DNA from: Heptranchias perlo
Lineage: Eukaryota
Assembly (NCBI RefSeq): GCF_035084215.1
Contig: NW_027138892.1
Coordinates: 186,001 to 250,000 of the forward strand
Direction of reading: 5' to 3'
DNA length: 64,000 bases
Shown here: positions 15,519-62,890 of the stretch, one piece after another
Numbering within the stretch: position 1 is the first letter of the stretch
Layout of the letters: every line of letters starts with the position of its first letter
Program-made: the position numbers and the translations under genes
Notes under the pieces: model-generated
Databases searched by the model: none
Told to the model about the DNA's origin: nothing
What the model saw: only the letters and a program-made list of their open reading frames with translations

Positions 15519-18367
15519 CTAGTTAAACTGGGTTTGCTTGTGTTTCCTGTTCAGGAACAAGGCAATCCAAGAAGCAGAGATCAGAGAGACAGCGCTCACA
15601 GTCAGGGCCAAGATCAGGACCACCTGAGACGCCACACCTATAAAGCAACAAGAAACCAATGGTTAGTGAAGGAAATACTGAGGGGAAAATGGAAACTAGC
15701 AGTCGGCCAACTCACCACCTGGACACCTCTCCTGCATCCTTTGCTCAACATCATTAAGGGGCTCAGTTGCCAGGTCTGACACATGAGGATCCAGAATGAC
15801 CAAGGGTCCAAGTGAGGCCTCACCCTCCCACTTCAACTCAGCATCACTCTCTGCAATATCAAACATTCCAGTTAGAGGGTAAAGGGTGACCTCCAACATA
15901 GAGGATCAATGTCCTACCAGGTCCAGATACAAGATCCCTCCTTCCTCTGGAATCAGGTCGGAATTCCCTTGTGGCACTGCAGCTGCCCAGATGACAACAG
16001 GCACACACGTCATTGGTCGATTCTTCCAATGGGGTCCAGCTCAACCAGAGAATCAGTTTATCAACCAGGTTGTCCATCACCCTTTAATACAACACATCCC
16101 TGAGCGAGAGAGGGAACTTACATATTCTGGAAAGTACAAGCTTTGTTCATGGAATCTCTCCGATCCACTGCAGCAACTTTCAGGTGACAGGTGATGAAAA
16201 TCTGAGGGACACATTCAATACAAGTTGTTATTGAGTGACCTCCTCCCAACATGGGGAACCCAATGTTTGGCTTCCTCTTACCAAGGAACGGTCATCCCCA
16301 AAGAAGCGGAACGCATCCAGATCAAACTGGAGTTTGTCCAGCTCACGTTCACCTCTTGGCAACACAAAGGTTGAAAAGGAGTCCTCAGCTTTGCTGTCCA
16401 GGAGGCAACTGAAGAAAGATTTAAAAAGGGACAAAGTGAATTAAGTGAACAGATTGAGACAAAACCAGCTGGAGAAAGCAGAGAGCTCCTTACCCATGGG
16501 AGTCAATGATGTTGTATCTTGGGGTGGAATCCTTGTCTGGGCTCAATGTAGCTGCACAGCTGTCAATGTAGAGCTTCAAGGGCATGTGGTTGGTCATTGA
16601 AACAGAGGCCTCAATGTGAATGAGGTCACCCAGGTAGTCGACAGTCGAGGTGCGCTCTGTAAGCCAGTCATCTGAAGTACAAGAGGAAAAGGGTTGGAGA
16701 CAGTGGGTGTAACTCCCAGTGGGAGACAACAGAAAAGCACTCCCCATCCACCAATCACATACCGTTCATAAGACGCAGTGAGAATGACAGAAGCCCTTCT
16801 CCAGACTTGGTCGAGCTGAATGGGATCCAGGTGGGCTTGATAGGGTCACTGCTCACATTGCCCTTCCTGAAACGACAGTACAGTAATTTCAGGACAACTT
16901 CACAGAACTGCACCTGCTGTAGACCTTATTTGCAATGGAGTAAAGATTCTTACCTAAAATAGTGGCACTCAATGGGAATGACTGCTCCATTAGTTCTCAC
17001 AATGACAGATCCACGAGCATTTGGGGTGTGGTTCAGGTGGGTGGTGTCGACCAGGAAATCTCCAGCCATCTGAAATACATCAGGTGAAGGAATGAAGAGC
17101 TGGTCTCATTGAACAAAAGCTATTTCTGGTCATTTTCCTGCCCTGTTAAGCAGCAGTTTGAGGGGTTTCAGCTGCTCCTCAATGACACATGATTGAAGCA
17201 GCTCCACCATTGGTGGATGTTGCCATTGAGCAGCCTCTGTTACTCTGCTCAGTCCACCTTCTATTCCAGGGGACTTCAGGCCTGCAGTCAGAAACCCTGA
17301 AATGATCGGCACAGCCAGATTTGATGAGTATTCTTTCCCATACAGAATAGAGCTTTCACCTTAAGGGGCTTCAAGTGACCCCTGATATGGAGCACAAAAC
17401 ACATCACTTTGAAACCTCATCTGTGCCCATGGAATCAAGGGGATTGGCAGGTGTAATAACCAAAAGTGGAGTTCCCCTTTAATACACTGTATCCCAATTA
17501 TTATTCCAATTGTTTCATCTTTCAAGAGAAGTCTCAACAGGAACTTCCACACTGAACATTCATTGACCACAAGTTGAGGCAACAGGCCTGAATATCCACA
17601 GGAAGGAACGGAAAAGATAAATCAATTGAGGCACAAAAGAACAGAGTGGTTTGGAGAAATGCAGGTGAAGGTTCAAGGTCAATAGAATTGAATCTCAGAG
17701 TTAGAGAGTAGCAATGACCCATTTAAGAAAGATGCAGTCCCTCAGTGACAAGTTGAAGTTCTTTTTAAATATAAAGCGAAGATTGACATGTCAACATAAA
17801 GAAGTAGTTTCACACAGGGTGATACTTCACAGTGGGCAAAAATTTATACACAGATTTCATTCAGGGGTCTCCTCAGTGGCTGGAGTTTCACCCGATGTTA
17901 ATGAGTTCAGAGTGGGCAGTAATCTACACAGTGAAATTGGAGCAAGAGTTGAGGAATCACATTACCTGCAATCTGCTGCCACATTCATGGAGCCCATAGT
18001 CAAAGAGGACAGTGTGGTTCTGAGAGTAGATCCCAGTTGGCCGATAACCTGCTGTCCCCAGGGTCAGGTCAGTAGCTTTAATCAGGTGCCTGGTTCCAAA
18101 TAAATCCATGTCTATCCTCACCAGCAGGTTCTGCTCTCCACACTGCACCATCACAGTCTGCAGTGGAGACAGACTTCTCCCCTCAGACACACTGAAATGG
18201 GAACCAAAGGGAGGGACAGGGGGAGGGACTCTCTGGGGTACAGGGGTGGGTTTTACTCTTCTCCATGGAAATCTCTGCCCTCTAAACTGTTGCCAAATAT
18301 CAGAGCAACAAACCACTCCAACTAACACCAGCACCGAGAACAAACCTCTCACTACAAAATCCCCCAT
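15519..18367 (-). CDS. zp3: Zona pellucida glycoprotein 3 (ZPC), 9 exons: 18367-17966, 17069-16954, 16866-16763, 16671-16494, 16408-16282, 16201-16122, 16039-15918, 15850-15716, 15637-15519
   Basis: Signal peptide, [62 protein letters not shown]...C, furin site RGRR, EHP LGPLVIL, TM helix; AATAAA just 3' of the stop. Splice phases are compatible; the exon 7 acceptor is GAG. ZP-N Cys2 is replaced by Tyr. Confidence 0.92.
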
Positions 18368-18385: not shown

Positions 18386-18479
18386 TATCACTTTACCCAC
18401 CAACCAGCACCTTTTTTTTTTCTCTTTTTTTTTTCCTTTTTTTCTTTTTCTTTTATCACTTTACCCACCAACCAGCACC
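18386..18479 (-). repeat. 26-bp motif GGTGCTGGTTGGTGGGTAAAGTGATA duplicated around an A-rich spacer (2 copies; 3 copies at 45821-45981)
   Basis: Seen directly, upstream of the ZP3 ATG; period ~67 bp. Confidence 0.9.
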
Positions 18480-18812
18480 CTTTTTTTTCCTTTTTCTTTT
18501 GTGTTTTTTAGGCCCCCCTTTTACAAGAAGCGGGGGGGGGGGGGGTGTCGGGTGTGCTTAAGTGCTAAAAACCAAATAAAACGAAACCAGGCATCAAATT
18601 AAAATTTTATTTTCCTCGTCCAGGATGCACTCCAGCCCCTGCAGTGCCCACCGGTCGCGGAAAGCCTCAAGCGTACCGGCAGACACCGCGTGCTCCATCT
18701 CCAGGGCCACCCGGGCGAGGAGCAACCCGCGAAAGAGAGGCAGACAGGCCGAGCGACCGCCCCCACGGACCGCGAGCATCATGGACCTGTGGATATCCAG
18801 GATGCACTCCAG
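18480..18812 (-). mobile_element. Short Tx1-type 3' end, tail pointing at ZP3
   Basis: RSACLPLFRG...EMEHAVSAGTLEAFRDRWALQGLECILDEENKILI* followed by hairpin and A-rich tail. Confidence 0.9.
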
Positions 18813-20666
18813 TTTCGTCTAGTTTTCTGGTGGGTCAGTGGCGGGTGGACTCTCTGCCGGAGGAGCTCAGGCCTTTCGCCTGGAGTACCACGCACCTCCG
18901 GTACCTGGGAGTCTACCTCGGCCCTGCCGAGGAAGCCTGGCCGGCGAACTGGGAAGAGCTGGAGGCCAAGGTCGCCGCTCGCCTGGCGCGCTGGACAGGA
19001 CTGCTCCGAGTGTTATCCTACAGGGGTCGAGTGCTGGTCATAAACCAGCTGGTGGCCGCCATGTTGTGGTACCGGTTGGTCACTTTGACCCAACCCCCCG
19101 AGTTTGTCGCCAAAATTCAGAGGAAGTTCGTCGACTTCTTCTGGGCCAGAGGGATACACTGGGTCGCTGCCGCGGTCCTGAGTCTCCCGCTTAGGGAGGG
19201 CGGTCAGGGGCTGGTGTGCGTCCGCACCCAGGTGGTAACTTTCCGCCTTCGGACGCTGCGGCCATACCTGTACGTTGAGCGTCCTCTTAGATGGCGTGCG
19301 CTGGCGACGTATTTTTTCCGCCAGCTGCACGGCCTGAACTACGACACGCAGCTCCTGTTCGTCTCGCTGGTGGGCGGCCGCATGTCTTTGCAGGAGCTGC
19401 CTGTCTTTTACCAGGATCTGCTCAGGGTCTGGAACATGGTCGCCTCCGGTCGGAGCTCTCGCCCGTCAGGGGTAGCGGCTGTCCTGCAGGAGCCGCTGCT
19501 CGGGAATCCGTTCCTCCGCGATATCGGCTTCGGCCACTCGCGGCTGTCGGTGCGGAGGGCCGTGGCCGGTCGGGTGACCAGAGTCAGGGACGTCCTGGAT
19601 GGCGGTGGGTCGGGTTGGTTGGAGCCGTGGGCGCTCGCCGCACGGATGTCCTCGTGGCGTGCCGGGGACGCGGCCATCGCCATCCGGGCGTTGAAATCGG
19701 CGCTCGGCCCTGACTCCACTCGGGATGTGGAGGCGGCTCAGGCGTGCGGAGCCATCCCGTCCGACCTGACCCCCGTTCGGACGGAGTTCCTCCTCGGCGC
19801 CAAACCCCGGAACCTCCCTCGGGGGGCCGCGCCTCACAACTTGAGCCGTCTCTCGGAAATTCCCTCCGTGCCGTTTCACACCGCGCGGAGGGATTTCCTG
19901 TACGGGCTGCTCCTGCACACCATCCACTTCCTCGCCCTCGTCTCTCGGCCGGACACGCCCTGGCGTACCATCCTGCCGTCCGGCGGAGACGGGGGTTCCC
20001 AGTGGGGGACTCTCTACTCAGGGATCCTCCCGTGTTCCATCGGGGATCTGGGGTGGAGGGTGGCGCACGGAGCAGTCGAGTGCAACCGGCGGTTACGCCA
20101 TTTCACGGACACCCAGGCCGCTTGTGATTTCTGCGGCCTGGAGGAGTCCGTGTTCCATCTGTACACTGGGTGTGCGAGACTGCAGCCCCTGTTTGATTAT
20201 TTGAAGGGGCTGCTCCTCAAGTTCTGGCTGCATTTCAGTCCCACGCTCCTGATCTTTGGCCGCCCGGTGAGGAGGGGAGCGGGCAGGTCGGTGGACGTTC
20301 TCGTGGGCCTGCTCCTGGGCCTGTCCAAGGTGGCCATCCACAGGTCCAGGATGATCGTGGTCCGTGGGGGCGGTCGCTCGGCCTGTCTGCCTCTCTTCCG
20401 CGGAATGCTCCGCGCCCGGGTGGCCCTGGAGATGGAGCACGCGGTGTCTGCCGGTACGCTCGAGGCTTTCCGCGACCGGTGGGCACCACAGGGGCTGGAG
20501 TGTATCCTGGACGAGGAGAATAAAATTTTAATTTGAACACTTGGTTTTGGTTTGTTTGGTTTTAGTATTTAAGCACACCCCACACCCCCCTCTTATAAAA
20601 GGGGGGCCTAACAAAATAAAAAAAAAGAAAAAAGGAAAAAAAAAAATCTGAAAGTGAAAAAAAAAA
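18813..20666 (+). mobile_element. 5'-truncated Tx1-clade (L1 group) retrotransposon: RT C-terminus plus zinc-knuckle region, frame open
   Basis: LRYLGVYLG, LSYRGRVLVINQL, LPLREGGQGL, CDFCGLEESVFHLYTGC (CCHC), A-rich tail. Confidence 0.92.
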
Positions 20667-21095
20667 TCTGAAAGTTTCTCTTTGTTTCAATCTCTTGGAA
20701 TCATAACTTTGAATTATTTGATAATAATTTGATATTTTCACTGAAGTGGCTTTTCATAATCTGGTCAAGTTTATTACTTGTTAGTGATTGTGATGTTGAG
20801 ACAATATTCAAAGCAATCAAGTTGTCTTGAGTGAATTTGCAAACCATCCATTGGTCAGAGAAATGGAAATTCCATCCCATGGATGGTGTGAATCGTCCCC
20901 AGTTCTAATATAGAGAATGGGTGTGTCTGAGGATTGGCAGCATGGGGGCATCAACTGGGCAAAGCATTGTGGGATGCATCATTTTTAGTTTTGATTCTCA
21001 TGAAATGTTGTTTGGTAAAATTCAGGATATTCAGCGAGAATGAGAGGCAGTGAAGATTACTGAATGCAATGTCACCCACACAAACATCTCCATTT

Positions 21096-21468
21096 GTGTC
21101 AGCTGTGGCTCAGTGGCAGCACTCTCACCTCAGAGTCAGAAGGTTGTGGGTTCAAGTCATCATCTCGAGACTTGAGCACATAATCTAGGCTGACTAAGGG
21201 AGTGCTGTACTGTCGGAGGTGCCGTCTTTTGGATGTGATATTAAATCGAGGCCTCATCTGCTCTCTCAGGTGGACGTAAAATATCCCACAGCACTATTTC
21301 GAGGAAGAGCAGCGGAGTTCTCCCCAATATCTGGACCAATATTTATCCCTCAACTAACATCACTAAAACAGATTATCAGGTCAATATTTCATTGCTGTTT
21401 TTGGGTCCTTGCTGGAGGCAAATTGACTGCCGCATTTCTTACCTTACAACAGTGACTACACCTCAAAG
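21096..21468 (+). mobile_element. tRNA-derived DeuSINE (SacSINE1/AmnSINE1-like)
   Basis: A-box tggctcagtgg, B-box ggttcaagtc, Deu-like core cattgctgtttttgggtccttgctg...aaattgactgccgcatttcttaccttacaacagtgactacac. Confidence 0.8.
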
Positions 21469-21584
21469 GTGCGAACTATGCAGCAGTCAAAGCTACCAGA
21501 TAATCCACACTGACTCCTAAAATTATGGCTCAACAACGTATGAAATGTGGTGACATTGATATCCCAAAAGTGCCTTTAGAGATC

Positions 21585-21890
21585 ATAATATCCAACTATT
21601 ACAGCACAGAAAGAAGCCATTCAGCCCATTGTGCCTATGCTGTCTCTTTGAAAGAGCTATCCAATTAGTCCCACTCCCCTGCTCTTTCCCCCTTCAAGTA
21701 TTTATCCAATTTCCTTTTGAAAGTTATTAAATCTGCTTCCACCACCCGATGAGGCAATTCATTCCAGATCAGAACACTGAAAAAAGTTTCGTGTCACTTC
21801 TGGTTCTTTTACCAATCACCTTAAATCTGTGTTTGCTGGTTCCTAACCGGTCTGCTACTGGAATCAGTTTCCCCTTATTTACTCCATCAA
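21585..21890 (-). mobile_element. CR1 3' end fragment; mirror at ~42430-42735
   Basis: acagcacagaaagaagccattcagcccatt...ctttgaaagagctatccaattagtccc, same tail family as 11590. Confidence 0.75.
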
Positions 21891-23260
21891 TATAAAGATA
21901 TTAACATGGACTGACTGAAGATGGCAATTCTATCACACCCAGTGCAAGTCACAAGTTCCTAAACTTCACTTGGAAACACTGGATAATTACAGCTACAGCA
22001 TCAACATTTGAATCCATTCATAGGGGTGAAGGAGATGAATGGAGAACCCATAGGATTTGGAAAGGTTGATTACAATTTGGTATGGAACACACAATAGGAC
22101 TATAGGCAAATCGACACATTTATGGAGGAGCTGATTGTATTGTGTTTATGAATTGATGGCATTGGGATGTGGAGTTTCAGGCAAAATATCTATTTAACTT
22201 GGTTTAAATGAAATGGTGATCCAGTAGAATTTAGAATTGTAATCTAGTATTAACTGCACAATGGGATAAATACAAATTGATAGATTTATGGATGAGCTGC
22301 TTATATTGGGTTTATGAATTGATGGAACAGTAGTGGTATGGAAGAGTTTAGGAGCCTTATCTATTCAACTTAATGGTTCAAGTTAGTTGTTTAGTGCATT
22401 TACTACGTCTCCCAGAAGGAAGATTTTGTTTGCTGGAGTTTAGTTCGAAGTATTTTTTCTGTACCATACCCAATTTATTATTCATGGGGGAGATTAACAG
22501 GGGGTTGGGGGGGCAGAAGATGAAAATGAAGGGAAATAGACAAACAGGGAACCTGCACTCCCCCATATGAGACCTATTTGACTCCAAACAAACAGTTTAT
22601 TAGGAGTAATAGTGAGTGATTTCATAAGCTACCCCAACTACCTACTGAGGTCTGTAGCATCTTTGGAAAAAAAAGCATCTGGATTGTTCTTCCCCAGGCA
22701 GATACTATTCTTTAAAAAATTGCCTATTGGACTGAAATTACTAGTTCACTTTCCTTGTGTTTTATTGGAACAAAATGTTACAGCAGCTGATTTTGCATCA
22801 TTAATGAGTTAAACAGTTGATAATATGCAGTACTAATAGGAACAGTAACTCATTACTGTATTGTTCTTTGCATTGAAATCAGCAGTAATCATTTTACTGC
22901 ATAAATACAAATTTACACTCAAGGCAGACACATTGGCCCTCAACACCCAAGTCACTACATTGATATGACCCCAGAAGAAAAAATGTCATAGGGCAGAATC
23001 TCACCCGAAAGCCAATACATAGCCCAATGTAATTTGTTACAACAGCTGAATTATGTTAATCTGAAAAATAAGCAATCACTCAATTTACAAGGAGCCAAAA
23101 CCCAGTCTTCTGTAACAGTTTATTTCCAGTTACTATTACATTTCACATCAAGAGCCCAGGTCTCACAGCTCTTAGTACAAAGTCACCATTGCTACAGGAT
23201 AGGGGTTCTTCAGACTATAAACAAGAGTACTGAACAATAAGCTTTATCCCTGCAGTCAGT

Positions 23261-25823
<2,563 letters not shown>

Positions 25824-25842
25824 CTTTAAATTAACTTTAACA

Positions 25843-26095
25843 AAACTAAACAACTCTATTGAAGCAAGAAACTGAAAAACAGCCACCCAAAGCTCCATAT
25901 TTATACTGCTGGTTAATCCTGGGCGTGGCAGCCTAGATGATGAGTGACAGTTGGCAATACCCAATCAGAAATTACATCCTCTCTCAGAACACCAATCAAG
26001 AAAAGGGAGGAGGGGAGATGACACCCAGAGCCAGTCAGAACTTTGAAGGAGGAGCATCATTGGCTGACAATTCAATAAAGATCCAATTGCTTTGA
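25843..26095 (-). promoter_or_regulatory. Ferritin promoter (TATA plus CCAAT boxes) and degenerate IRE
   Basis: TATAAATA at 25905-25898, CCAAT boxes at ~25962, ~25992 and ~26060; TTCTTGCTTCAATAGAGT IRE remnant. Confidence 0.75.
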
Positions 26096-26120
26096 CTTTC
26101 CTCAAACTGTAAAATCTGTT

Positions 26121-26295
26121 TCCGTGACCGGTGGGCACCGCAGGGACTGGAGTGCATCCTGGATCGATGTAATAAAATTACAATTTGACACTTATTTTGG
26201 GTTTATTGATTTACTGCACATAATCACAACCAACCCCCCCCTCCCCTTCTTATAAAAGGGGGGCCTAAAACACAAAAAAAGGAAAAGCAAAAAAA
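26121..26295 (+). mobile_element. Tx1 3' end fragment immediately upstream of the outer-left ferritin promoter; mirror at ~38030-38205
   Basis: ccgtgaccggtgggcaccgcagggactggagtgcatcctgg...ccccttcttataaaaggggggcct. Confidence 0.85.
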
Positions 26296-26584
26296 CCATG
26301 GCTGCTCTTCCATCCCACACTCCAAAGAATAAAAAATCTGATCGTGACCATATTCTTGACCATAATCGACCTTTCTTTGATGGACCAATAAGGGAGACTC
26401 TGGGTTGCCCCAGGGTCACCAAACATAAACCATCACAAGTGGCCCTCTCAGGGCACCACTAATATTGGATGGTCCAATCAAACTGAAAAGATACCAAAAT
26501 AAGCATCAAGTGCCACCAAAAACAACAGGATACTTTCCCAATTAAATCAGGATTCTATTATTGATGTCTGAAAGACAGTCTATA

Positions 26585-26665
26585 CCCTGCGGTGCCCAGC
26601 GGTCGCGGAAGGCATCAAGCGTAACGGTGGACACCACATGCTCCCTCTCCGGGGCCACCCGGGCA
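26585..26665 (-). mobile_element. Small Tx1 fragment; mirror at ~37660-37741
   Basis: Mirror reads gcccgggtggccccggagagggagcatgtggtgtcc...ttccgcgaccgctgggcaccgcaggg. Confidence 0.7.
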
Positions 26666-28659
26666 CTTGACCATAATGGACCAAATTGTCAATTGGTGGA
26701 TCGGCCCCCATCCCATCGGTTATGGTCACTGATCGTGACGGTTCAAAGATCCAGAACCACAGGTTTAATTGTTGTTTGCGGGTCAGTGTCTTTGAATAAT
26801 TCTGGATGGATCCGTGAGTTGGTTATTTGGCAAGTAGCTGCGGGTTTGAGGCAACATCCAAACAGATCAGAGCCTGTGAACAGCAACCAACAGCGAGTCA
26901 GGCGAATGGAAAGTGGGTGTGATGAACGTGTTAAACACAAGTCCTTCAATACTCCATCAATTCTCGGGTCAGTGAGCATCTGTACACACATCGGCTGGAA
27001 AGTGAAGGGGGCCACGGCATGTTGAGTTCTTGTTTTGTCATCATGACATTTTACAAACAATAAAATGCAGAGCACTCCACGGGGAAGAGACTGTGGACCA
27101 TTGACTGAAGGGATTTGGGGGGGGGTGGGGTTTGGTGTTGGGAGGGATTGCGGTGAGAGGCAAACACTGTGTGTAGTGTTGGTTGTATATACAGTGAGCG
27201 ACAGTGGTGAACAGACTATCTGGTATTTCCTGGGTTTGGTAATCCCTTGTTTCAATGATTAATCTCTTGTACTTTTTGGACAGTCAAACACCAAGTGGAA
27301 AGAGTCGAGTGGTGAATTTTCTCATTAGAAAGGGGAGTTACTGATATTTCCCTAAATCCGGTCAGGGAAGGATGGGGCTCCGTGGATATTTTGTGTTCCA
27401 GATCACATCAGAATACTGTCGGATCAACAACAAACAGCAGGCTAAAAAAAAATCAAAGGTGGAACCTAGTGAAGGAAAGATGAAGCAACGAAAAGTGGGG
27501 TCGATGGACTGATCTGATCATATGATCCCTGTGTGAGAATAACCTGAACATCACTGGTGCAAACTCAGTTAAAGCTTTAAACAGACCAAGTAGTTGGTGG
27601 TTTAGCCTTTAATTAGATGGCTCTATTCTCCAACTCTTCAGTAGACTTGTAAGTGGCAGTTTTGGCAATTGGGATCTAGTGTTATTTGGTTCCAGGCCAA
27701 ATAAGATTACACAAAGATTGTATTCGCAAGGAGAGGGGAATGGGGCAAGAACTGTTTAATTGCAGAATCCAGCAAGGGAAACTTAGAGGGGCCCTTAGAT
27801 TTGCAACAGCAAATGGAAGTATTTTAGAGGCTAAGGGGTCCAGGATATAAAAGGTGCATGAGGTGAACAGAGACTGGAAAATAAAAATTGAGATTGAAAC
27901 AAATAGCAGGAGCTGGACCAAAGTTCTGCACAGGAAGAAAAAGATGGGCTGAAGAGAAGGAGGAAAGAGCCAGGTAACCCTAGCAGGAACAATTGGAGAT
28001 TTGGTCTTACTTTGCTCCAGGATTTTTGTAACTACTTAAATTTGAATACCTGCTTCAGGGAACACTTCCCTCATGTCCTACAATGGACAAGTCAGCAGCA
28101 ATGTGTGGGGTTGTTTATTCAGAAGGTTAACTACTGTAATCACCATTGATGCCCACATCCCATGAACGAATAGTAATTTAAAAAATGCACACTCTCCAAA
28201 AGGGATTCAAGCCTATGTGGAGGAAGAGGCCTTACTGTAATCAGATTACACTTTAATCTCTACTACACAACACCAAATATTGAAATCTGTTAGGTACAAA
28301 TCTAAATTTGGCCTGATGGCCATCCCAGGCTGCTACAAAACCAAATTAAGCCTTCTGGAGGGGAAGGGGTTAAAACATCCATGTGCCCAAACAAATCAGA
28401 TTTTATCACGGTGACAACTTATTTCTTAGAATTTTTTTTGTTTGACGCAAGGCCACGTGCATTGGTGTTAGAATGTGCTCAATTACTGAAGAAAAGGAAC
28501 CAGTTCAACATCAAAATGTTTTATTTCAGCTGCAAGAACACTCAACTACAATGTTTGGAAGTTAATCTTAGACTTTGAATTCCATTCCCAGTTCAGAGAG
28601 ATGGCAACATAAAACTTCAATACACAAGTTGAATATCTGCAACATGGACAACAGTCCAG

Positions 28660-31710
<3,051 letters not shown>

Positions 31711-32459
31711 CCAAACTACTTTTTTTTTAAATAGACCAGCAACTGACTATAAACAATATGAACATAAGGACCTCAAACCTAAGCTGCTATATTTATTCTT
31801 TCAGACCCAACCCATCTTTAACTACAGGATGTGACATCACTGATGATAAATGTTTGGCAGCCAATCAAATAGCTGCTTTCTCATCACACGAACGGAAAAA
31901 AACCCTAACCCCTCCCCCTGAAAAAAGTGGGGGGGGCCTAAAAACACCAGAAAAAAGGAAAAACACACAAAACCCCAATATCTTCAGGATCCTCCTTTCA
32001 TTCAATCACTTCTCTTGTTCTATTTCATAAGTTTCTTCACTTCATTTTAACCTGCTGTTTGTTTTTATTCTGTGACCTGTCTGTTTTTTAACCTCTCTTT
32101 CTCATGATTTCTCCCCCTGCTCCTCATTTGTTCTGTTCTTTTCTCCCCATCTCCCCCATTCCCCAGAATCCCACCCATTCCCATGTCCCCTTGTAACACT
32201 GTGCAGTCTGCAGCCTGTGTGTCCATGTCCCTGTGCTTCAGTCAGCCTGAGTCACTCTCTTCAATAAAAAATATTCCTTCCACTACGAGCATGCTATCCA
32301 GTCCCTCGGTGCCATTGTCTCAATGTTACTCTTTTAATTGAACAAGAAGGAGACACTGAGTTTCTCTTTTTTTCTAATGGGTCTTTGAGCCCCAGTGTCA
32401 GGAACCCCGAAAACCTATTCAAGTGCTGTAAGAATTTTTTCTTGTGCCACACCCAATCA

Positions 32460-33105
32460 TAGCAATGAAACCGAATTAAACCAAAATGTCACTGTCGTAA
32501 TCAACTATCCACTCCAGTCCCCGGTCTCAAACATAACGGCAGACACTCCGTGCTCCTTCTCCAGGGCCGCCCGGGCACGGAGAATGCTGCGGAAGAGAGA
32601 CAGACAGTCGGAGCGACCGCCCCCCCATAGGCCATGTCTAGCCTGGACCTGTAGATGGCCACCTTGGACAGGCCCAGGACCAGACCCACGAGGACTTCAG
32701 TCCCACGCTCCTGATCTTTGGCCACCCGTTGAGGGGAGTGGGGAGTTTGGGGGGGGGGGCGCAGGCAAGTCGGAGGACATTCTCATGGGTCTGGCCCTAG
32801 GCCTGTCCAAAGTGGTCATCTACAGGTCCAGGCTCGACCCGCCCCATGGGGACGGTCGCTCCGACCGTCTGCCTCTCTTCCGCAGCATTCTTCGCACCGC
32901 GATGGCCCTGGAGAGGGAGCACGCGGTGTCTGCCGGTACGTTTGAGGCTTTCCGCAACGGATGGGCACCGCAGGGATTGGAGTGCATCCTGGACCGAGAT
33001 AATAAAATTATAATTTGACACTTATTTTTTTTTTGGATTTACTGCACATGAACACACCCTAACCCCCCCTTCTTATAAAAGGGGGGCCTAAAACACACAA
33101 AAAAA
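32460..33105. mobile_element. Head-to-head pair of Tx1 3' fragments (minus ~32460-32725, plus ~32745-33105) in the palindrome spacer
   Basis: LVGLVLGLSKVAIYRSR on minus; LMGLALGLSKVVIYRSR...WAPQGLECILDRDNKIII plus hairpin tail on plus. Confidence 0.85.
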
Positions 33106-33461
33106 GCTGACTGCCCATAAAAAAAAAATTTAAATTATTATTTGACTCTGTTATCATTTAGTTTTTGGATTTTTAAAAAAAAAATAAAGTTACATCCTGA
33201 ACCTCCCTCCCTCAATCTCATAAAAGGGGATCGAAACATACAAAAAAAGTCAACCTGATTCAAAAGAAATCTACTTAATTGAAAAAAAAATGTTCTGATT
33301 GGCCTTAAATACAATCTCGACTACGCCTCTTTCTTGATTGGTGTCCTCAGTGGGCGTAGAGCTCTGAATGGCTAGTGTGAGTTTTTACTCATCATCGGGA
33401 ATGCCACGCCTTGTATTACAGGCAGGCTGTCCCCAGACATATCAATAGAAGAGTTTGGGAA

Positions 33462-33690
33462 TGCTCTGCGCCCGGGTGGCCCTGGAGATGGAGCACGCGG
33501 TGTCTGCCGGTACGCTCGAGGCTTTCCGCGACCGGGGGGCACCGCAGGGGCTGGAGTGCATCCTGGACGAGGATAATAAAGTTTTAATTTGAACACTTGG
33601 TTTTGGTTTGTTTGGGTTTTTAGTATTTAAGCACACCCCAAACCCCCCCTTCTTATAAAAGGGGGGCCTAATAGGAAAAAGAAAAAAAAA
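33462..33690 (+). mobile_element. Tx1 3' fragment with target-site duplication aagagtttgggaa, inserted at the ferritin pseudogene start region
   Basis: gagtttgggaa at 33451 and 33691 flanks the insert, which ends in the hairpin and A-rich tail. Confidence 0.9.
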
Positions 33691-33749
33691 GAGTTTGGGA
33701 AGACGTTAGCCTGGTTCAGCTAGTTAAAATACCTTCTTAGACAGTTAGA

Positions 33750-35691
<1,942 letters not shown>

Positions 35692-38254
35692 CTGGACTGT
35701 TGTCCATGTTGCAGATATTCAACTTGTGTATTGAAGTTTTATGTTGCCATCTCTCTGAACTGGGAATGGAATTCAAAGTCTAAGATTAACTTCCAAACAT
35801 TGTAGTTGAGTGTTCTTGCAGCTGAAATAAAACATTTTGATGTTGAACTGGTTCCTTTTCTTCAGTAATTGAGCACATTCTAACACCAATGCACGTGGCC
35901 TTGCGTCAAACAAAAAAAATTCGAAGAAATAGGTTGTCACCGTGATAAAATCTGATTTGTTTGGGCACATGGATGTTTTAACCCCTTCCCCTCCAGAAGG
36001 CTTAATTTGGTTTTGTAGCAGCCTAGGATGGCCATCAGGCCAAAATTAGATTTGTACCTAACAGCTTTCAATATTTGGTGTTCTGTAGTAGAGATTAAAG
36101 TGTAATCTGATTACAGTAAGACCTCTTCCTCCACATAGGCTTGAATCCCTTTTGGAGAGTGTGCATTTTTTTATTACTATTCGTTCATGGGATGTGGGCA
36201 TCAATGGTGATTACAGTAGTTAACCTTCTGAATAAACAACCCCACACATTGCTGCTGACTTGTCCATTGTAGGACATGAGGGAAGTGTTCCCTGAAGCAG
36301 GTATTCAAATTTAAGTAGTTACAAAAATCCTGGAGCAAAGTAAGACCAAATCTCCAATTGTTCCTGCTAGGGTTACCTGGCTCTTTCCTCCTTCTCTTCA
36401 GCCCATCTTTTTCTTCCTGTGCAGAACTTTGGTCCAGCTCCTGCTATTTGTTTCAATCTCAATTTTTATTTTCCAGTCTCTGTTCACCTCATGCACCTTT
36501 TATATCCTGGACCCCATAGCCTCTAAAATACTTCCATTTGCTGTTGCAAATCTAAGAGCCCCTCTAAGTTTCCCTTGCTGGATTCTGTTTCATTAAACAG
36601 TTCTTGCCCCATTCCCCTCTCCTTGCGAATACAATCTTTGTGTAATCTTATGTGGCCTGGAACCAAATAACACTTATAAGTCTACTGAAGAGTTGGAGAA
36701 TAGAGCCATCTAATTAAAGGCTAAACCACCAACTACTTGGTCTGTTTAAAGCTTTAACTGAGTTTGCACCAGTGATGTTCAGGTTATTCTCACACAGGGA
36801 TCATATGATCAGATCAGTCCATCGACCCCACTTTTCGTTGCTTCATCTTTCCTTCACTAGGTTCTACCTTTGATTTTTTTTTAGCCTGCTGTTTGTTGTT
36901 GATCCGACAGTATTCTGATGTGATCTGGAACACAAAATATCCACGGGGCCCCATCCTTCCCTGACCGGATTTAGGGAAATATCAGTAACTCCCCTTTCTA
37001 ATGAGAAAATTCACCACTCGACTCTTTCCACTTGGTGTTTGACTGTCCAAAAAGTACAAGAGATTAATCATTGAAACAAGGGATTACCAAACCCAGGAAA
37101 TACCAGATAGTCTGTTCACCACTGTCGCTCACTGTATATACAACCAACACTACACACAGTGTTTGCCTCTCACCGCAATCCCTCCCAACACCAAACCACC
37201 CCCCGCCCCAAATCCCTTCAGTCAATGGTCCACAGTCTCTTCCCCGTGGAGTGCTCTGCATTTTATTGTTTGTAAAATGTCATGATGACAAAACAAGAAC
37301 TCAACATGCCGTGGCCCCCTTCACTTTCCAGCCGATGTGTGTACAGATGCTCACTGACCCTAGAATTGATGGAGTATTGAAGGACTTGTGTTTAACACGT
37401 TCATCACACCCACTTTCCATTCGCCTGACTCGCTGTTGGTTGCTGTTCACAGGCTCTGATCTGTTTGGATGTTGCCTCAAACCCGCAGCTACTTGCCAAA
37501 TAACCAACTCACGGATCCATCCAGAATTATTCAAAGACACTGACCCGCAAACAACAATTAAACCTGTGGTTCTGGATCTTTGAACCGTCACGATCAGTGA
37601 CCATAACCGATGGGATGGGGGCAGATCCACCAATTGACAATTTGGTCCATTATGGTCAAGTGCCCGGGTGGCCCCGGAGAGGGAGCATGTGGTGTCCACC
37701 GTTATGCTTGATGCCTTCCGCGACCGCTGGGCACCGCAGGGTATAGACTGTCTTTCAGACATCAATAATAGAATCCTGATTTAATTGGGAAAGTATCCTG
37801 TTGTTTTTGGTGGCACTTGATGCTTATTTTGGTATCTTTTCAGTTTGATTGGACCATCCAATATTAGTGGTGCCCTGAGAGGGCCACTTGTGATGGTTTA
37901 TGTTTGGTGACCCTGGGGCAACCCAGAGTCTCCCTTATTGGTCCATCAAAGAAAGGTCGATTATGGTCAAGAATATGGTCGCGATCAGATTTTTTTTTCT
38001 TTGGAGTGTGGGATGGAAGAGCAGCCATGGTTTTTTTGCTTTTCCTTTTTTTGTGTTTTAGGCCCCCCTTTTATTAGAAGGGGAGGGGGGGTTGGTTGTG
38101 TTTCTGTGCAGTAAATCAATAAACCCAAAATAAGTGTCAAATTATAATTTTATTACATCGATCCAGGATGCACTCCAGTCCCTGCGGTGCCCACCGGTCA
38201 CGGAAACAGATTTTACAGTTTGAGGAAAGTCAAAGCAATTGGATCTTTATTGAA

Positions 38255-43654: not shown

Positions 43655-45496
43655 TTTTTTTTTTTCTTTTTTTTTCACTTTCAGATTTTTTTTTTTTCTT
43701 TTTTCTTTTTTTATTTTGTTAGGCCCCCCTTTTATAAGAAGGGGGGGTGGGGTGTGCTTAAATACTAAAACCAAACAAACCAAAACCAAGTGTTCAAATT
43801 AAAATTTTATTCTCCTCGTCCAGGATACACTCCAGCCCCTGCGGTGCCCACCGGTCGTGGAAAGCCTCGAGCGTACCGGCAGACACCGCGTGCTCCATCT
43901 CCAGGGCCACCCGGGCGCGGAGCATTCCGCGGAAGAGAGGCAGACAGGCCGAGTGACCGCCCCCACTGACCACGATCATCCTAGACCTGTGGATGGCCAC
44001 CTTGGACAGGCCCAGGAGCAGGCCCACGAGGACGTCCACCGACCTGCCCGCTCCCCTCCTCACCGTGCGGCCAAAGATCAGGAGCGTGGGATTGAAATGC
44101 AGCCAGAACATGAGGAGCAGCCCCTTCAAATAATCAAACAGGTGCTGCAGTCTCGCACACCCAGTGTACAGATGGAACACGGACTCCTCCAGGCCGCAGA
44201 AATCACAAGCGGCCTGGGTGTACGTGAAATGGCGTAACCGCTGGTTGCAGGCGACTGCTCCGTGCAACACTCTCCACCCCAGATCCCCGATGGAACACGG
44301 GAGGATCCCTGAGTAGAGAGCCCCCCACTGGGAACACCCGTCTCCGCCGGACGGCAGGATGGTACGCCAGGGCGTGTCCGGCCGAGAGACGAGGGCGAGG
44401 AAGTGGATGGTGTGCAGGAGCAGCCCGTACAGGAAATCCCTCCGCGCGGTGTGAAACGGCACGGAGGGAATTTCCGAGAGACGACTCAAGTTGTGAGGCG
44501 CGGCCCCCCGAGGGAGGTTCCGGGGTTTGGCGCCGAGGAGGAACTCCGTCCGAACGGGGGTCAGGTCGGACGGGATGGCTCCGCACGCCTGAGCCGCCTC
44601 CACATCCCGAGTGGAGTCAGGGCCGAGCGCCGATTTCAACGCCCGGATGGCGATGGCCGCGTCCCCGGCACGCCACGAGGACATCCGTGCGGCAACCCGA
44701 CCCTCCGCCATCCAGGACGTCCCTGACTCTGGTCACCCGACCGGCCACGGCCCTCCGCACCGACAGCCGCGAGTGGCCGAAGCCGATATCGCGGAGGAAC
44801 GGATTCCCGAGCAGCGGCTCCTGCAGGACGGCCGCTACCCCTGACGGGCGAGAGCTCCGACCGGAGGCGACCATGTTCCAGACCCTGAGCAGATCCTGGT
44901 AAAAGACAGGCAGCTCCTGCAAAGACATGCGGCCGCCCACCAGCGAGACGAACAGGAGCTGCGTGTCGTAGTTCAGGCCGTGCAGCTGGCGGAAAAAATA
45001 CGTCGCCAGCGCACGCCATCTAAGAGGACGCTCAACGTACAGGTATCGCGGCAGCGTCCGAAGGTGAAAAGTTGCCACCTGGGTGCGGACGCACACCAGC
45101 CCCTGACCGCCCTCCCTAAGCGGGAGACTCAGGACCACGGCAGCGACCCAGTGTATCCCTCTGGCCCAGAAGAAGTCGACGAACTTCCTCTGAATCTTGG
45201 CGACAAACTCGGGGGGTGGGGTCAAAGTGACCAATCTGTACCACAACATGGCTGCCACCAGCTGGTTTATGACCAGCACTCGACCCCTGTAGGATAACAC
45301 TCAGAGCAGTCCTGTCCAGCGCGCCAGGCGAGCGGCGACCTTGGCCTCCAGCTCTTCCCAGTTCGCCGGCCAGGCTTCCTCGGCAGGGCCGAGGTAGATC
45401 CCAGGTACCGGAGGTGCGTGGTACTCCAGGCGAAAGGCCTGAGCTCCTCCGGCAGGGAGTCCACCCGCCACTGACTTACCAGAAAACTAGACGAAA
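43655..45496 (-). mobile_element. Tx1 5'-truncated copy, frameshifted mirror of 18813-20666
   Basis: ORF split into 45267-45665, 44617-45300 and 43794-44711 by a 1-bp deletion (~45398) and a ~20-bp deletion (~44693). Confidence 0.9.
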
Positions 45497-45820
45497 CTGG
45501 AGTGCATCCTGGATATCCACAGGTCCAGGATGCTCGCGGTCCGTGGGGGCGGGTGCTCGGCCTGTCTGCCTCTCTTTCGCGGGTTGCTCCGCGCCCGGGT
45601 GGCCCTGGAGATGGAGCACGCGGTGTCTGCCGGTACGCTTGAGGCTTTCCGCGACCAGTGGGCACTGCAGGGGCTGGAGTGCATCCTGGACGAGGAAAAT
45701 AAAATTTTAATTTGATGCCTGGTTTTGTTTTATTTGATTTTTAGTACTTAAGCACACCCTACACCCCCCCCCCTTCTTATAAAAGGGGGGCCTAAAAAAC
45801 ACAAAAAAAAGAAAAAAAAA
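45497..45820 (+). mobile_element. Short Tx1 3' end pointing at the right-arm ZP3
   Basis: ORF 45530-45715; cccccttcttataaaaggggggcc; A-rich tail. Confidence 0.9.
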
Positions 45821-61897: not shown

Positions 61898-61978
61898 ACT
61901 GCGCAGCAAAGCAACCTTTTATCTGAAATCTGAGGCGAGATCTAAACTGCACAGAGCAAGCCCACGGACAACCTCACG

Positions 61979-62890
61979 ATGCTCCACTTTTCCAGCTTCC
62001 ACCCTAACCACGTCAAAGAGGCCATCCCCTATGGACAGGCCCTGCGAATACACAGGGTCTGCTCAGACGAGGAGGAACGCGATGGACACCTACAGACGCT
62101 GAAAGACGCCCTAGTAAGAACGGGATATGACGCTCGACTCATCGATCGACAGTTCCGACGGGCCACAGCAAAAAATCGCATAGACCTCCTCAGGAGACTA
62201 ACACGGGACGCAACCAACAGAGTCCCCTTTGTCGTCCAGTACTTCCCCGGAGCGGAGAAACTACGCCATGTTCTCCGCAGCCTTCAACATGTCATCAATG
62301 AGGACAAACACCTCGCTATGGCCATCCCCACACCTCCACTACTCGCCTTTAAACAGCCACCCAACCTCAAACAGACCATCGTTCGCAGCAAACTACCTAG
62401 CTTTCAAGAGAACAGCGTCCACGACGCCACACAACCCTGCCACGGTAACCTCTGCAAGACATGCCAGATCATCGACACAGATACCACCATCACACGAGAT
62501 GACACCACCCACCAGGTGCATGGTTCATACTCCTGTGACTCAGCCAACGTTGTCTACCTCATACGTTGCAGGAAAGGATGCCCCAGAGCATGGTACATTG
62601 GCGAGACCATGCAGACGCTGCGACAACGGATGAACGGACACCGCGCAACAATCGCCAAACAGGAGGGTTCCCTCCCAGTCGGGGAACACTTCAGCAGTCA
62701 TGGACATTCATCCACCGACCTTCGGGTAAGCGTACTCCAAGGCGGCCTTCGAGACACACGACAACGCAAAATCGTCGAGCAGAAATTGATAGCCAAGTTC
62801 CGCACCCATGAGGACGGCCTCAACCGGGATCTTGGGTTCATGTCACGCTACACGTTACCCCACCAGCGAACAAATGTTATCTGTTTTTAA
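61979..62890 (+). CDS. Penelope-like ORF C-terminus: RT thumb, Cys linker and GIY-YIG endonuclease
   Basis: PCHGNLCKTC; SCDSANVVYLIRC..C..WYIGET...RMNGHR...VGEHF...EQKLI...GLN. Confidence 0.9.
   Translation: MLHFSSFHPNHVKEAIPYGQALRIHRVCSDEEERDGHLQTLKDALVRTGYDARLIDRQFRRATAKNRIDLLRRLTRDATNRVPFVVQYFPGAEKLRHVLRSLQHVINEDKHLAMAIPTPPLLAFKQPPNLKQTIVRSKLPSFQENSVHDATQPCHGNLCKTCQIIDTDTTITRDDTTHQVHGSYSCDSANVVYLIRCRKGCPRAWYIGETMQTLRQRMNGHRATIAKQEGSLPVGEHFSSHGHSSTDLRVSVLQGGLRDTRQRKIVEQKLIAKFRTHEDGLNRDLGFMSRYTLPHQRTNVICF

Follow-up and report, generated by a model that had tools for sequence, protein, structure and literature searches.

The window analysed here, the whole stretch of 64,000 nucleotides (nt) at C725:186001-250000 of the Heptranchias perlo assembly (genome size 3.25 Gb; C-numbers denote contigs of this assembly and L-numbers individual loci), contains an inverted duplication of 98% identity that carries ZP-domain and ferritin genes, and our subject is a family of retrotransposons that lack long terminal repeats (non-LTR elements), from the Tx1 clade, whose copies lie upstream of these genes. 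The ZP gene was recognized by Pfam ZP-C (3.4e-11), with ZP-N (3e-4) under the cut-off, and the ferritin gene by Pfam Ferritin (8e-11). Approximately 100 ZP 5′ ends and approximately 100 ferritin exon-1 copies were seen in the genome, in large arrays. A 24-mer from the ZP 5′ end gave 112 genome matches; among the 100 listed, 77 are on C38 (75 within 9.5-17.8 Mb) and 13 on C725. Ferritin exon 1 gave 101 matches, with one group inside the ZP region of C38; C43 has a tandem array of its own at 4.27-4.77 Mb. The ferritin units seem to have been copied into the ZP array along with their old Tx1 insertions (C38:9.5-17.8 Mb, C725 and C43:4.27-4.77 Mb). ZP exon 1 of some paralogs (L205, L229 and L230) contains expanded in-frame 6-nt repeats, and two lone ferritin exon-1 fragments, L262 (C1:114.07 Mb) and L263 (C8:35.52 Mb), have another 5′ leader and no Tx1 copy nearby. 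From general knowledge, we assume that the ZP and ferritin array genes are expressed in oocytes.

A scan of the window with the full-length reference element gave 11 family matches, and a scan with its tail added the remnant at 31931-31941. Every family copy in the window lies upstream of a ZP or ferritin ATG, with none in the introns of the window. In the non-redundant arm, each of the seven copies reaches with an edge into the 1 kb upstream of an ATG; this zone makes up 15% of the arm (p ~2e-6 if the copies are independent). The first-pass annotation had claimed that every ZP and ferritin gene has a Tx1 3′ end within about 300 bp of its ATG and had noted no member of the family in introns. 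The upstream position of all window copies bears out the first statement in part, but it is the 5′ end that lies nearer at the outer ferritins, 296 bp off the ATG; the 3′ end, 445 bp away, is directed away from the gene. Outside the window, 8 of 40 ZP 5′ ends and 13 of 37 C43 ferritin genes lack an upstream copy, so that “every gene” is too broad, and the absence from introns, correct within the window, is broken by one independent intronic copy. The 13-bp target-site duplication (TSD) reported for the pseudogene insert (33449-33461 and 33689-33701) is exact; its placement about 20 nt after the TATA remnant had to be corrected, as alignment to an intact promoter puts the TSD 2 nt past the remnant. 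The same annotation rightly treated the mirrored copies as not independent, and overlooked the 80-bp fragment (26585-26664), the inverted pair (32526-33091) and the 1.8-kb copy A (18827-20611). Several of the window insertions are old events common to 8-23 paralogs. Copy A is flanked on its 3′ side by ferritin upstream DNA that starts at about -290, so that this copy appears to have inserted at a ferritin site and to have been joined to the ZP promoter later. A first search for the empty form of this flank returned one unrelated-looking match, and empty forms were later found at C43 ferritins.

Genes and Tx1-derived features of the window (positions in the window; a dot marks features given without a single strand)
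Feature	Position	Strand	Remarks
ZP-domain gene, left	15519..18367	-	ATG 18367; Pfam ZP-C, ZP-N
Duplicate of the 25 nt that follow the ZP TATA box, then A-run	18412..18480	-	same form in L215 and L224
Tx1 copy B	18481..18794	-	sense to ZP; A-tail stops at 3′ edge of TATA box; same junction type at 22 places; empty promoters exist
Tx1 copy A	18827..20640	+	1.8 kb, 5′-truncated, head-to-head with B; 94% to full-length L199 copy
3′ flank of copy A	20641..20940	+	antisense ferritin upstream DNA, starting ~290 bp above ATG; 93-96% to C43 ferritin upstream regions
Outer-left ferritin gene	23257..25823	-	TATA box ends 25905; Pfam Ferritin
Old Tx1 3′ fragment with short flanking repeat and transduced piece	26111..26340 (Tx1 part 26119-26268)	+	antisense; common to 23 ferritin paralogs on C38 and C43
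80-bp Tx1 fragment upstream of outer ferritin	26585..26664	-	common to 23 paralogs
Inner-left ferritin gene	28652..31710	-	
Tx1 tail remnant	31900..31975	+	antisense, ~230 bp above inner-left ferritin ATG; tail motif 31931-31941
Inverted Tx1 pair between divergent ferritin genes	32526..33110	.	probably one event; common to 8 paralogs
TATA remnant of ferritin pseudogene	33440..33447	+	aligned to intact ferritin promoter
Tx1 insert with 13-bp TSD	33449..33701	+	sense; TSD starts 2 nt past pseudogene TATA remnant
Ferritin pseudogene / inner-right gene	33750..35699	+	
Mirror copies of the two outer-ferritin fragments	37662..38206	.	not independent (98% inverted repeat)
Mirror copies of A and B	43719..45820	.	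upstream of right ZP gene (ATG 46000)

The copy at L199 on C38 carries an intact open reading frame (ORF) 1 of 679 amino acids (aa) and an intact ORF2 of 1301 aa. ORF2 matches Pfam RVT_1 (6.6e-38) and Exo_endo_phos (3.2e-11), the reverse transcriptase (RT) and apurinic/apyrimidinic endonuclease (APE) domains, and ORF1 shows a weak zf-CCHC match (0.003). The alignment of ORF2 to Xenopus Tx1L ORF2 (P0004, YTX2_XENLA) contains 645/1294 identities (50%), and the matches of best identity, at 67-69%, are in a stingray and a horn shark. Judged by its sequence, the family is a Tx1-clade non-LTR retrotransposon and Tx1L-like, in agreement with the first-pass assignment. Membership of the R2 clade was ruled out by the two ORFs and the APE domain, as R2 has a single ORF and a restriction-like endonuclease.

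Distinct junctions at the TATA edge of ZP genes and at the C43 ferritins support the earlier suggestion that the family landed repeatedly and independently at both kinds of promoter. On C43 we surveyed 200 kb with 37 exon-1 copies, 24 of them with an upstream fragment, and collapsed the insertions by their 5′ junction. This left nine distinct insertions. Eight of them are no more than 1.1 kb above an ATG, in a zone covering 20% of the 200 kb (binomial p ~2e-5); the ninth sits in an intron and bears a ZP transduction. Four of the nine are common with window ferritins or C38 paralogs, and the window and C43 sets are not independent. Among the 40 ZP 5′ ends that were fetched, the eight empty ones have CCAAT box, E-box and TATA box directly ahead of the site at which copy B ends. 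At least five distinct A-tailed inserts abut the ZP TATA edge: the long copy of L192/L193, the B type, whose junction occurs at 22 places, the inserts of L220 and L205, and a second insert in L192. The L220 insert is leader only, those of L205 and the second of L192 are ZP 5′ sequence followed by an A-run, and two TATA-edge inserts are ZP-RNA-like pieces restored in register. Further ZP insertions, of either orientation, fall between about -70 and -170. Insertions recur at the TATA box's 3′ edge in ZP genes, at some 290-330 bp above the ferritin ATG (antisense), and inside the element's own leader, which produces head-to-tail stacks; no longer motif common to these sites was found.

These observations bear on the simplest explanation, namely that insertion is random and that a few chance promoter-proximal copies were expressed and then spread by array duplication and gene conversion. 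Eight of the nine C43 events still lie upstream after junction collapse, tiny non-coding fragments cluster as well, though expression brings them nothing, and distinct A-tailed inserts share one nucleotide position. We consider random insertion improbable for these reasons, even though several events are common to 12-23 paralogs, the B junction is a single event at 22 places, and the copies dispersed through the genome look near-random.

The arrays also hold full-length copies and appear to be sources of the dispersed ones, a point that goes beyond the first-pass annotation. A 26-mer of the 5′ untranslated region (UTR) has 38 exact matches, all on C38, C725, C1048 or C1417. In 25 of the 30 full-length 5′ ends that were read, the sequence runs from the ZP promoter through ZP +1..+69, ATG included, into the element leader, and host target sequence thus stands in register at the 5′ end. 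The other five all lie behind another tail, and two of them have a leader 93-97% identical to antisense ferritin upstream DNA. The L192 element ends back at the TATA edge and that of L199 at about -110, which implies that 70-180 bp of the target were duplicated, far above the 11-16-bp TSD. A search for a founder insertion with a normal TSD at ZP +55..+69 found 0 matches for tails abutting there. Elements with promoter type 2 do not form one clade, as at least three changes are forced on the element tree, and this mismatch is compatible with repeated joining or gene conversion. ORF2 starts number 149; C38 has 78 of the 100 listed, C43 has 10, and 12 are elsewhere. Of the 88 listed array starts, 35 stand head-to-tail behind another copy, 11 follow a listed ZP start, 7 diverge from a ferritin ATG, 1 is antisense to ZP, 8 are tied only to a 5′UTR match and 26 fall in no category. 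A third leader was found in five of the eight off-array long copies that were read; it contains E-boxes, CCAAT boxes in pairs and a 150-nt piece of ZP intron 1 (90%), and one sub-lineage carries promoter-like DNA along with it. In one sample, contigs from four runs whose kind is uncertain span the ZP-leader junction (X1 and X3) but also reach upstream of the TATA box, and so speak neither for nor against a start at the ZP promoter.

The link between the arrays and the rest of the genome is seen in the tails. The exact 23-mer tail has 556 genome matches, and our dispersed sample consists of the first 100 (C1-C7) minus the duplicates L117 and L119, that is, 98 copies with a density of 0.10 per Mb on C1-C7 and a median identity of 91% to L199. 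A TSD was called in 73 of the 98, mostly of 11-16 bp. Half of these TSD-bounded copies (37/73) have non-A sequence in the tail, and 29 of the 37 transductions trace to ZP exon 1, ZP intron 1, the ZP promoter, ferritin-array DNA or a leader. The tail of L156 (C7:21943647), for example, contains about 340 nt of ZP exon 1, and the tails with ZP intron 1 imply that sources also sat in that intron. In tail chains such as those of L092 and L096, one site is repeated in diverged paralog versions, which is compatible with serial re-insertion or template jumping. ZP 5′ sequence has spread to other chromosomes, at C43:4630831 and at listed places on C2, C5, C7, C8, C10 and C49, by 3′ transduction in the cases read.

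To characterize the dispersed targets we rebuilt 68 empty sites, excluding the 25 of 98 copies without a TSD call (among them the promoter-like L079) and 5 adjoining another family copy, and scored 11 motifs in 3 window sizes against the sites' own distal flanks and 30 sites of a control long interspersed nuclear element (LINE) family, defined by the tail of the element at window 5426-8393 (372 exact genome matches); these promoter tests use motifs as proxies for mapped start sites. At the 68 sites there was no enrichment of CpG, TATA, GC box, ETS or NRF1. Sequence resembling a CpG island occurred at 5 of 68 sites compared with 25 of 408 control windows, and none of the 68 was nicked at a TATA-like word. 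The general targeting of RNA polymerase II (Pol II) promoters that had been proposed at first is thus not supported, and short copies elsewhere in the genome mostly have no general promoter preference. An apparent enrichment of a homeobox-like word was rejected, as it arises only through sites in LTR-like sequence.

That LTR-like family, whose motif has 1,850 matches genome-wide, lies within 200 bp of 10 of the 68 sites, mostly near one end of it, whereas such proximity was seen for 2 of 680 distal windows and for none of 30 control-LINE sites (58-fold excess, p=1e-9). The E-box of the ZP promoter was counted 71 times at dispersed sites where 38 were expected (1.9-fold, 0/5000 resamplings; 56 against 32 without the LTR sites), and CCAAT 31 times against 21 (1.5-fold, p=0.02), both in post hoc tests. 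Together with single sites that look like promoters (L072, L082, L061 and L079), these excesses are what one would expect if the family preferred open oocyte chromatin in general, with any germ-line-active promoter as a target and the arrays merely the most active. The first-pass annotation had raised this preference, and the LTR-like family and the E-box excess keep it in play. However, CpG, TATA, GC-box and ETS motifs are not enriched, many dispersed sites lie within the bodies of other LINEs, and E-box density is no higher at dispersed sites than beside the control LINE (0.69 and 0.70 per 400 nt), so that we regard such a general preference as rather unlikely. The largest single target type accounts for 10 of 68 dispersed flanks (15%), and the 88 of 100 listed ORF2 starts in the two arrays are inflated by duplication; PMC4494074 calls a Tx1 family target-specific when one target type makes up more than 20% of flanks.

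Recurrence to the nucleotide at the ZP TATA edge and at the ferritin -290 site, and the close kinship with Tx1L, might instead point to a sequence-specific endonuclease in the manner of Keno or Tx1L, in which a DNA motif common to the sites sets the target. No conserved motif was found at the nick of the dispersed sites: the target-site logo that the first-pass annotation looked to, drawn from the 68 TSDs, contains nothing beyond an A-rich start that is partly an artefact of the A-tail. As the recurrent sites share no longer motif and none of the 68 dispersed nicks falls at a TATA-like word, we consider this explanation very improbable.

Recurrence at fixed positions, leaders of host origin and tails derived from the arrays are direct observations. 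On balance, we think it probable that a Tx1L-like LINE inserted repeatedly at the amplified ZP and ferritin promoters and holds many full-length copies there, likely transcribed from host or captured promoter DNA. The most likely interpretation is that the family nests at highly active egg-gene promoters and is transcribed from them, in the way of R2 but on arrays of Pol II protein genes, where we infer expression and mechanism from the arrangement of the copies. An endonuclease with a weak preference for A-rich nicks would reach promoter sites through open oocyte chromatin. The ZP promoter would drive a co-transcript of ZP exon 1 and the element, ferritin promoters would drive the divergent copies, and the 69-nt ZP leader on the cDNA would anneal to the target, so that the 5′ junction is closed in register, in the manner suggested for R2. 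The cassettes would then be multiplied through duplication of the arrays and gene conversion. A fuller version, which we put forward only tentatively, makes this Tx1 lineage an R2-like resident of Pol II protein-gene arrays that would be transcribed from the ZP promoter with a ZP exon 1 leader, nick sister genes at the TATA edge and rebuild a promoter-driven full-length copy through the leader in each cycle, having captured ferritin-promoter and ZP-intron leaders, and that would be drawn elsewhere to DNA bound by oocyte factors, such as LTR ends and E-boxes.

Several points weigh against residence and transcription at the array promoters. Most copies are dispersed, at sites that are not promoter-like. 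The third, portable leader belongs to 45 copies, and 25 of these lie outside the array contigs, which implies that full length does not require an array position. The 88 of 100 ORF2 starts were taken in contig order from 149 and overstate the share of the arrays. The threshold for matching transductions was loose (at least 15 nt, E < 0.05), 8 of 37 were untraced, and template jumping could yield the serial tail chains. Gene conversion could account for the long 5′ duplications and the tree mismatch, and the 3′ ends were read for a minority of ZP-led copies, which leaves room for it. Transcription from the ZP and ferritin promoters and expression in oocytes are, moreover, presumptive.

Other features touch this subject less closely. 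Two long young copies, L076 (C1:160.17 Mb) and L316 (C22:54.26 Mb), lie in one AT-rich satellite, and L316 is 99.6% identical to L199. L074, L075 and L079 are inserted in elements that look by eye to be of Harbinger type, and L079 lies 28 nt past a TATA-like box and ahead of an ATG. The element at window 5426-8393 (-) is a different LINE, with a 968-aa APE-RT frame, and degenerate tRNA-like stretches adjoin it (window 5250-5400 and 4950-5010). A 314-aa frame at window 61946-62890 (+) resembles by eye a Penelope-type GIY-YIG region and has no Pfam match.

We conclude that the feature is real and represents a new form of target use by Tx1 elements. A literature search that covered sources other than Repbase, most subscription papers and supplements listed no paper that places Tx1 at the promoters of protein genes, ZP and ferritin included, or that treats these arrays. 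The target-specific LINEs described in PMC4494074 and PMC4640811 use RNA genes, microsatellites or other transposons, and the promoters of amplified egg-protein genes would, if our interpretation is true, add a target class. The system would then make promoter capture visible in progress, with identifiable donors, and would offer a direct way to ask whether LINEs inserting in the germ line go where chromatin is open, and to test the homology model of 5′ joining in an element of APE type. The ZP and ferritin arrays, of about 100 copies each, may themselves be partly shaped by the Tx1 family.

Tx1-clade targets include U2, U5 and 5S genes, microsatellites, satellites and transposons (PMC4494074, PMC4640811). 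With Xenopus Tx1L and with Keno, Kibi, Koshi, Tx1-Mar and Tx1-9_AMi, the shark family shares a zinc-knuckle ORF1, an APE-RT ORF2, an A-tail, TSDs and a preference for multicopy targets, other transposons included (PMC4494074). Unlike those families, which use small nuclear RNA genes, microsatellites and transposons, it recurs at the promoters of protein-gene arrays, is mostly dispersed, has no sequence motif at its targets and has leaders derived from the host (PMC4494074). Like R2 in the 28S ribosomal DNA, it resides in a tandem host array and has host sequence at its 5′ end, with co-transcription in the shark being presumptive (PMC3774820). For R2, it has been proposed that uniform 5′ junctions arise through annealing of target-derived sequence at the RNA 5′ end, and in earwig R2 the 5′ end carries downstream target sequence (PMC3774820). 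R2 has a restriction-like endonuclease and a single strict site, together with a Pol I co-transcript and a ribozyme (PMC3774820), whereas the endonuclease of the shark family is of APE type, its several sites lie in Pol II genes, and its duplication is 69 nt long.

Promoter-seeking elements include Tf1, the P element and Mutator, which are LTR or DNA elements, and TRE5-A of Dictyostelium targets Pol III genes. Like these, the shark family inserts near transcription units at positions apparently set by chromatin or bound factors rather than by target sequence, but no genome-wide promoter bias was found for it. L1 elements replace their 5′UTRs, and their 3′ transductions tag source loci. The shark family resembles L1 in the turnover of its leaders and in transductions that mark its sources, and differs from it in that the donors of its leaders can be identified and are the very loci that receive new insertions.

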